DNA from: Escherichia coli
GTDB lineage: Bacteria; Pseudomonadota; Gammaproteobacteria; Enterobacterales; Enterobacteriaceae
Direction: 5' to 3' (one strand)
Assembly: GCF_003790525.1 (NCBI RefSeq)
Contig: NZ_CP033635.1
DNA: 64,000 nucleotides
Part shown: positions 1 through 253 of the stretch, piece by piece
Layout: each line of letters begins with the position of its first letter
Numbering within the stretch: the stretch's first letter is position 1
Made by a program: the position numbers and the translations under genes
The notes under the pieces: generated by a model
The model's input: the letters and a program-made list of their open reading frames with translations, nothing else
Told to the model about the DNA's origin: nothing
The model's database searches: none

Positions 1-253
1 GGGTAACGGTATGGAAGTTGAGCCGTGGCTGAAGGCGGCTGTGCGCAAAGAATTTGTCGATGATAACCGGGTGAAAGTGAATAATGACGGTAATTTTGTC
101 AATGATTTGTCGGGCAGACGTGGAATATATCAGGCAGGTATTAAAGCCTCATTCAGCAGTTCGTTAAGCGGGCATCTCGGGGTGGGGTATAGCCATGGTG
201 CCGGTGTGGAATCCCCGTGGAACGCGGTGGCTGGTGCGAACTGGTCGTTCTGA
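1..253 (+). CDS. C-terminal fragment of an autotransporter beta-barrel domain (5' end outside window; possibly a pseudogene remnant)
   Basis: ORF ends ...GANWSF, the aromatic-terminal motif typical of autotransporter/OMP barrels; position upstream of minE matches the ycgH/ycgI remnant region as recalled. Confidence 0.45.
   Translation, partial: GNGMEVEPWLKAAVRKEFVDDNRVKVNNDGNFVNDLSGRRGIYQAGIKASFSSSLSGHLGVGYSHGAGVESPWNAVAGANWSF

Follow-up and report, generated by a model that had tools for sequence, protein, structure and literature searches.

A ycgI-type autotransporter gene remnant convergent to minE in Escherichia coli

A 64,000-nucleotide stretch of an Escherichia coli genome (RefSeq assembly GCF_003790525.1, contig NZ_CP033635.1; hereafter the window) opens with 253 nucleotides that encode the end of an autotransporter barrel. 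Does this fragment belong to an intact adhesin gene that runs in across the window edge, or is it what is left of one, and which transcript is served by the A-run and hairpin that follow it? A first-pass annotation, made from the letters alone, left the first question open. Here we conclude with high confidence that positions 1-253 are the 3′ end of a dead gene, a ycgI-type remnant of an AIDA-I/YpjA-like adhesin that lies convergent to minE. The remnant as such is already known, as the pseudogene ycgI of K-12 and as an incomplete beta-barrel fragment in the RefSeq annotation.

On the plus strand, positions 2-250 form a stop-free frame of 83 codons that runs from GNGMEVEPWLK to AVAGANWSF (SPWNAVAGANWSF at the C-terminal end) and is closed by a TGA at 251-253; the mechanical list of open reading frames (ORFs) enters the same frame at 11-253, as 80 amino acids with an ATG start. 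Residues 3-61 match the Pfam autotransporter beta-domain PF03797 at profile positions 187-254 of 255 (E 6.3e-6), with a score of 26.6 bits that is narrowly above the cut-off of 26. The 114-amino acid remnant of the closest genome matches PF03797 at positions 154-254 of 255 (E 3.7e-11) and TIGR01414 at positions 319-432 of 432 (E 1.9e-21), and the beta-domain matches of fragment and remnant alike are far beyond chance. All 83 residues are identical to the C-termini of full-length alleles found at the same locus in other strains, and the first-pass recognition of the frame ending in AGANWSF as the last strands of an autotransporter barrel is borne out. The C-terminal aromatic beta-signal for outer-membrane insertion is kept, as the frame ends in AGANWSF followed directly by the stop.

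The fragment covers roughly the last three to four beta-strands of a 12-strand barrel. About 27% of the beta-domain profile is left in the window and about 40% in the 114-residue remnant, short of a complete 12-strand barrel in both cases. Over its whole length the remnant also aligns with the final ~113 residues of the solved barrels of BrkA (3QQ2) and Vag8 (7AKV), but this similarity is weak (E 5.7e-4 and 4.8e-3, respectively) and the remnant makes up well under half of such a barrel. The locus is a remnant of a member of the classical (type Va) autotransporter family and not a functional member, because only about 40% of the beta-domain profile remains.

The state of the gene beyond the window edge can be read in closely related genomes. 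Positions 1-620 of the window match 5,424 of 5,426 complete E. coli genomes, the 20 best at 99.8% with a single mismatch, and positions 1-25000 match SMS-3-5-like genomes at ~100%; by these matches the window is assigned to E. coli of the SMS-3-5 lineage. In SMS-3-5, 2D and M172-1 the autotransporter frame runs only 92 bp past the window edge, and RefSeq annotates there a pseudogene of 345 bp as ‘autotransporter outer membrane beta-barrel domain-containing protein, incomplete, missing N-terminus’. The N-terminal Sec signal peptide and the passenger domain are absent in these three near-identical genomes, each of which was inspected. The 345 bp remnant is promoterless and lies between ymgJ and minE, with ymgJ, ymgI, ymgG, ymgD and a frameshifted ycgH-type autotransporter as its upstream neighbours; downstream, minE (620-886), minD and minC are on the minus strand, a synteny shared with K-12 and SMS-3-5. 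On the question that had been left open, the three genomes thus point to a remnant, with 92 bp more of frame and then a deletion junction. The upstream check that had been proposed has two sides: the missing passenger speaks against an intact adhesin, while the 92 bp of autotransporter frame leave the identification as an autotransporter fragment standing.

Alignment of the remnant with full-length loci defines the lesion. Full-length alleles at this locus (3,417 bp and 1,138 amino acids in VCSW7; 1,154 amino acids in ETEC4068) encode a signal peptide (MNRISRYYFHRSVLSLLIAAMIYAPPGMTA...), six AIDA repeats, a pertactin domain and a complete PF03797 barrel. The remnant differs from them by a deletion of 3,101 bp, at ~5808-8908 of the full-length locus sequence L002, whose junction (...TTAGACGCTACT|ATCATTTATCC) lies 92 bp before the window start and is identical in K-12 and SMS-3-5. 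The deleted part comprises 29 bp 5′ of the start codon, including the Shine-Dalgarno site, and the first 3,072 bp of the coding sequence. What is left is the last 114 codons, under half a barrel, without a start codon of their own, a signal peptide or a passenger. Microhomology at the junction was considered and found to consist of one shared base and a nearby imperfect TAT(T)CATTT repeat, which gives no clear mechanism.

According to the scenario that we propose, the product of the ancestral gene would have started with a signal peptide, continued into a beta-helical passenger that carried AIDA repeats and a pertactin-like domain, and finished with a barrel of 12 strands ending in NWSF. A single deletion of 3,101 bp would have removed the Shine-Dalgarno site, the signal peptide, the passenger and most of the barrel, leaving a remnant that would be incapable of export or barrel folding and would accordingly have no adhesin function. 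The gene’s own terminator (266-293) would still stand 3′ of the remnant, the hairpin at 322-349 being a separate, minus-strand element. For the window’s own source we infer the remnant state from the near-identical genomes, since the junction lies 92 bp outside the window.

The first-pass suggestion of a ycgH/ycgI-type gene proved apt, as the remnant is the orthologue of K-12 ycgI (b4521) by both position and sequence. In K-12 MG1655, ycgI has the same position between ymgJ and minE, the same convergent orientation with minE, the identical junction and the same extent of 344-345 bp, and diverges by ~6.5% at the nucleotide level across window positions 1-640. In K-12 the frame is broken by the loss of 1 bp at window position 18, whereas the window copy is still open. 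The literature on ycgI consists of passing mentions: the gene is referred to as a pseudogene next to minCDE (PMC6206680), and it gave a broken barrel in homology modelling (PMC7383365).

How widespread is the remnant? In the sample of 5,426 complete E. coli genomes, 4,473 (~82%) carry the remnant junction, scored as an unbroken match to at least 80% of a 1,121 bp query that spans the junction. A near-full-length locus, scored as at least 80% of a 5.2 kb query made up of the gene and its unique flanks, is present in 424 genomes (~8%), a figure that takes in a few alleles interrupted by insertion sequences (IS). At least ~200-400 bp more barrel sequence than in the K-12-type remnant is found in 713 genomes, which overlap the 424 and take in O157:H7 and IS100-interrupted alleles. 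Decay has followed other routes as well: a larger deletion in O157:H7 has left a remnant of 756 bp, which is joined to unrelated DNA near ompT, and other alleles are interrupted by IS100 or IS1203. Next to minE, the type strain of E. albertii has an ORF that ends in AGMSWSF and is truncated by the contig end, with at least 910 codons present. The intact convergent arrangement is probably ancestral, because E. albertii retains this long open gene beside minE. As an example of how adhesin genes decay in E. coli the locus is textbook material, and the census gives it some modest background: one ancient deletion allele is carried by ~82% of complete genomes, with independent disruptions of the locus in others.

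Among 15 E. coli haplotypes, 15% of the sites in the remnant part of the window are variable, compared with 16-23% in the adjacent non-coding spacer and 3.4% in the minE coding sequence. Frameshifts or stops are present in the remnants of K-12 (at window position 18) and of two further aligned loci (L020 and L029), and by annotation in those of APEC O1, E20 and APEC E12053. The remnant would thus appear to be non-functional as an adhesin, because it has no export signal and under half a barrel and shows this evolutionary pattern.

Two E. coli haplotype groups are distinguishable at this locus, ~6-7% apart across the remnant and spacer (1-620) and only ~1% apart in minCDE (620-2436). The identical deletion junction is found on both backgrounds, in SMS-3-5 and in K-12, which implies either that recombination took place near the junction or that the deletion recurred.

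We turn to the question of which transcripts end in the spacer. The convergent genes are separated by 366 bp that contain three terminator-like hairpins; a terminator scan of 1 kb returned four terminator-like sites, against 1.2 +/- 1.2 in shuffled sequence. The hairpin nearest to the remnant, at 266-293 on the plus strand, starts 13 nt past the stop codon and has a stem of 266-274 paired with 279-287 (AAACUGCGC/GCGUAGUUU) closed by a UUCG tetraloop (275-278) and followed by UUUUCGUUU. It folds at -12 kcal/mol (z -3.75; -14 and z -4.6 in the K-12 version) and is kept in E. albertii with one compensatory pair, A266-U287 to G-C; the automatic terminator scan did not list it. From its position and structure, 266-293 is the predicted intrinsic terminator of the autotransporter gene itself.

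The A-run and hairpin that had been pointed out in the first-pass annotation are present where it placed them, with the A-run at 324-330 and the hairpin at 332-349, but they are oriented for the minus strand and do not serve as the terminator of this gene. In plus-strand letters the stem is cccgcc (332-337) and ggcggg (344-349) around the loop agtgac (338-343). The scan reports the structure on the minus strand, at 322-349, as CCCGCCGTCACTGGCGGG then CTTTTTTTGC, with seven pairs of which six are G-C; the minus-strand stem is 349-344 paired with 337-332, the loop is 343-338 and a run of seven T occupies 330-324. Folded alone, its energy is unexceptional (-13.8 kcal/mol, z -1.4). That the hairpin is real is shown by its conservation in the two species: it occurs in all 12 aligned E. 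coli alleles, with one stem change in B2 strains, and the E. albertii version has a 5-bp stem and a run of eight T. We conclude that 322-349 is a predicted minus-strand intrinsic terminator that faces the 3′ end of the remnant and is not the adhesin gene’s.

It could be argued that the A-run and hairpin at 322-349 terminate transcription of the autotransporter gene after all, given that the hairpin lies 79 nt after the stop codon and that the stem folds equally well on the plus strand (-13.1 kcal/mol). However, on the plus strand the hairpin is followed by GAAACCTCATCC, which has no T-run and would give no U-tract, and the seven T are on the minus strand instead, where the run is lengthened to eight in E. 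albertii. Moreover, the plus-strand terminator at 266-293 is nearer to the stop codon and has a UUCG loop, a U-tract and a compensatory change. We therefore consider it very unlikely that 322-349 ends the adhesin transcript. Nor is it the primary terminator of minCDE, since a strong intrinsic terminator of the min operon stands on the minus strand at 568-595; it immediately follows the minE stop codon (620-622), folds at -19.8 kcal/mol (z -7.1) and has a stem of 12 pairs that is conserved in E. albertii.

The window differs from SMS-3-5 over positions 1-620 by one substitution, a G in place of T at 341, in the loop of the 332-349 hairpin; the same base accounts for the one mismatch to the 20 best-matching genomes. 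All other aligned alleles, from 11 E. coli and from E. albertii, have T at this position, and the stem is unaffected. G341 is either a private single-nucleotide polymorphism of the source strain or a sequencing error.

Several points weigh against the conclusion that 1-253 belongs to a dead gene. The deletion junction is outside the window, and the state of the source was read from near-identical genomes. The surviving 83 codons are open and show 100% protein identity to intact alleles, and on its own the fragment looks ‘fresh’. In SMS-3-5 a 147-amino acid ORF with a GTG start spans the remnant. Finally, the variable sites of the remnant are biased towards third codon positions (9/7/20 at the three positions), which we read as a legacy of the functional ancestor.

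In keeping with the first two of these points, the fragment might close a functional YpjA/EhaD-like adhesin gene that is intact and continues beyond the window edge. Near-full-length genes do persist in the 424 genomes noted above, the 83 codons of the window are open and match the full-length alleles at 83 of 83 residues, and the window haplotype has 98.7% identity to the intact VCSW7 allele, compared with 93.5% to the K-12 remnant. The closest relatives speak against this reading. All 24 genomes listed at 99.7-99.8% identity over 1-620 are annotated with a short beta-barrel fragment and none with a ypjA-like gene, and the genomes that match at ~100% over 25 kb are likewise annotated with a short fragment. 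SMS-3-5, 2D and M172-1, inspected in detail, all have the 345 bp remnant, whereas genomes with an intact gene reach only 98.7% over 1-620. An intact gene in the window’s source is accordingly very unlikely.

Least probable of all is that a small protein with some new function is made from the remnant, through the 80-residue ATG ORF (11-253) or the 147-residue GTG ORF of SMS-3-5: the frame is open in the window lineage, and in one screen library fragments that reach from minCDE into the ycgI homologue were enriched among filamentous cells, which its authors put down possibly to linkage with minC (PMC6206680), but the remnants of K-12, B2 and other lineages carry independent frameshifts or stops, the density of variable sites equals that of non-coding spacer, there is no signal peptide and RefSeq annotates a pseudogene.

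The reading of 1-253 as the end of a dead ycgI-type gene leads to the question of how that gene is related to other autotransporters. Over the fragment, 78 of 83 residues are identical to YpjA/EhaD (b2647); the full-length allele of the ycgI locus and ypjA share ~92% DNA identity from 384 bp 5′ of the start codon to 10 bp past the stop, and the NCBI pipeline names the product of the full-length allele YpjA/EhaD. By this comparison the full-length ycgI-locus allele is a paralogue of YpjA/EhaD. The two differ in that ypjA resides at another locus, at 2.78 Mb next to prophage CP4-57, with an unrelated downstream spacer, and encodes 1,526 amino acids against the 1,138-1,154 of the full-length ycgI-locus allele, of which the last 114 codons survive in the window lineage. 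YpjA/EhaD has been grouped with the biofilm-forming, self-associating autotransporters of the AIDA-I/Ag43 type (PMC9289746). The paralogy takes the form of a segmental duplication of ~3.8 kb (L002 5453-9263 compared with the K-12 ypjA locus, L019), which takes in the 384 bp 5′ of the start, a part that overlaps both ymgJ-like sequence and a 39-amino acid ‘hypothetical protein’, and ends 10 bp after the stop.

A second autotransporter gene in the same neighbourhood, ycgH (b4491; the ECIAI39_1904 family), has also decayed and is frameshifted in both SMS-3-5 and K-12. This gene is distinct from ycgI, lies ~1.3 kb farther upstream and has a barrel and a family of its own. It is not the missing N-terminus of ycgI, because VCSW7 annotates both genes as intact and complete. 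Two adjacent adhesin genes, ycgH and ycgI, have thus decayed in parallel. In SMS-3-5 the ycgH-type gene, upstream of the window, is at 7945-10593 of the locus sequence L001; it is frameshifted there and in K-12 and annotated as intact in VCSW7.

If the hairpin at 322-349 is not the adhesin gene’s terminator, what does it terminate? The hairpin adjoins a block of 57 nt (333-389) that is not part of the pseudogene and that is identical in E. coli (with T at 341) and E. albertii; elsewhere in the spacer the two species share 23-77% identity in 30-nt windows, and in minCDE 92%. Megablast found 342-416, within and beside the block, in 5,314 genomes, compared with 799 genomes for the right flank (417-491) and 4,253, mostly at 90-95% identity, for the left flank (254-328). 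Variable sites number 4 of 69 in 322-390, whereas the flanks have 11 of 68 and 40 of 177. In one E. coli strain, E20, the block is degraded.

We consider it possible, though appreciably less than probable, that the hairpin ends an unannotated candidate small RNA of ~68 nt, transcribed from the minus strand from ~389 to 322 and so far confined to E. coli and E. albertii. A relaxed scan gave weak promoter-like hexamers that align between the two species (E. coli TTGTTA-17-GATGAT, E. albertii TGGTGA-17-AATGAT), and they predict a minus-strand start at ~389, the exact edge of conservation; a strict sigma-70 scan of 1-1000 found no promoter. The candidate resembles Hfq-type small RNAs in its GC-rich stem of 6-7 bp, short loop and seven-T tail preceded by a conserved AU-rich stretch. 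It differs from the terminator-ended small RNAs of enterobacteria in having no Rfam match and only weak promoter hexamers.

Rfam gave no family for 1-1000, nor for 300-440 with laxer filters, and nothing near the gathering score. Sub-threshold minus-strand matches to rseX, MicA, RyhB and others (13-18 bits) were set aside as reflecting the generic shape of a terminator-ended small RNA. There is no feature within the block in the K-12 annotation, and we found no description of an RNA between ycgI and minE in the literature and in Hfq-CLASH supplement entries. An exact-match scan of species-representative contigs with the 20-mer GGAGAACAATGAATAATGAA returned only E. albertii and four chance matches in unrelated phyla. 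The 20-mer is invariant in 12 aligned E. coli alleles, yet no E. coli representative or other Escherichia appeared in that scan; either the E. coli representative lacks the region or E. coli is outside that collection. A long-range stem pairing 363-369 with 400-406 was rejected, as it is not conserved in E. albertii, where three of seven positions are changed on one side only.

The 57-nt block covers the GGGAG Shine-Dalgarno site and first codons of a plus-strand mini-ORF (MNNEIAG...). Within the same tentative reading, the candidate RNA would be antisense to the Shine-Dalgarno site and start codon of this decaying mini-ORF, a cis-antisense layout that recalls SymR/symE and type I toxin-antitoxin loci. 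Another possibility is that the RNA acts in trans, through a seed that contains CUCCC. The block might also be explained without a small RNA, by read-through from minE that ends at a back-up terminator or by an element that acts at the DNA level. Should the small RNA prove genuine, the min operon would have a new Escherichia regulator as its neighbour.

The mini-ORF itself occupies 373-513 on the plus strand and would encode 46 amino acids from a good Shine-Dalgarno site; its length ranges from 36 to 69 amino acids across strains. Its frame shifts through insertions or deletions in G-runs at ~470 and 494-501 and through a 7-bp insertion or deletion at ~502. As a real protein it was rejected, with just 16 sporadic ‘hypothetical protein’ calls, of 36-80 amino acids and in Escherichia or Shigella where named, and as a conserved protein likewise, the products being frameshift mosaics after approximately residue 16. 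An 18-amino acid minus-strand ORF at 416-360 (MGILGDDNPAISLFIVLP) was discarded as unsupported: no Shine-Dalgarno site was seen in E. coli, the E. albertii alignment has a GTG start, and one E. coli strain has a frameshift. A further plus-strand ORF at 506-583 would encode a basic peptide of 25 amino acids (MSSISKNTRR...); a coding role for it is unlikely, as it is for the ORF at 373-513.
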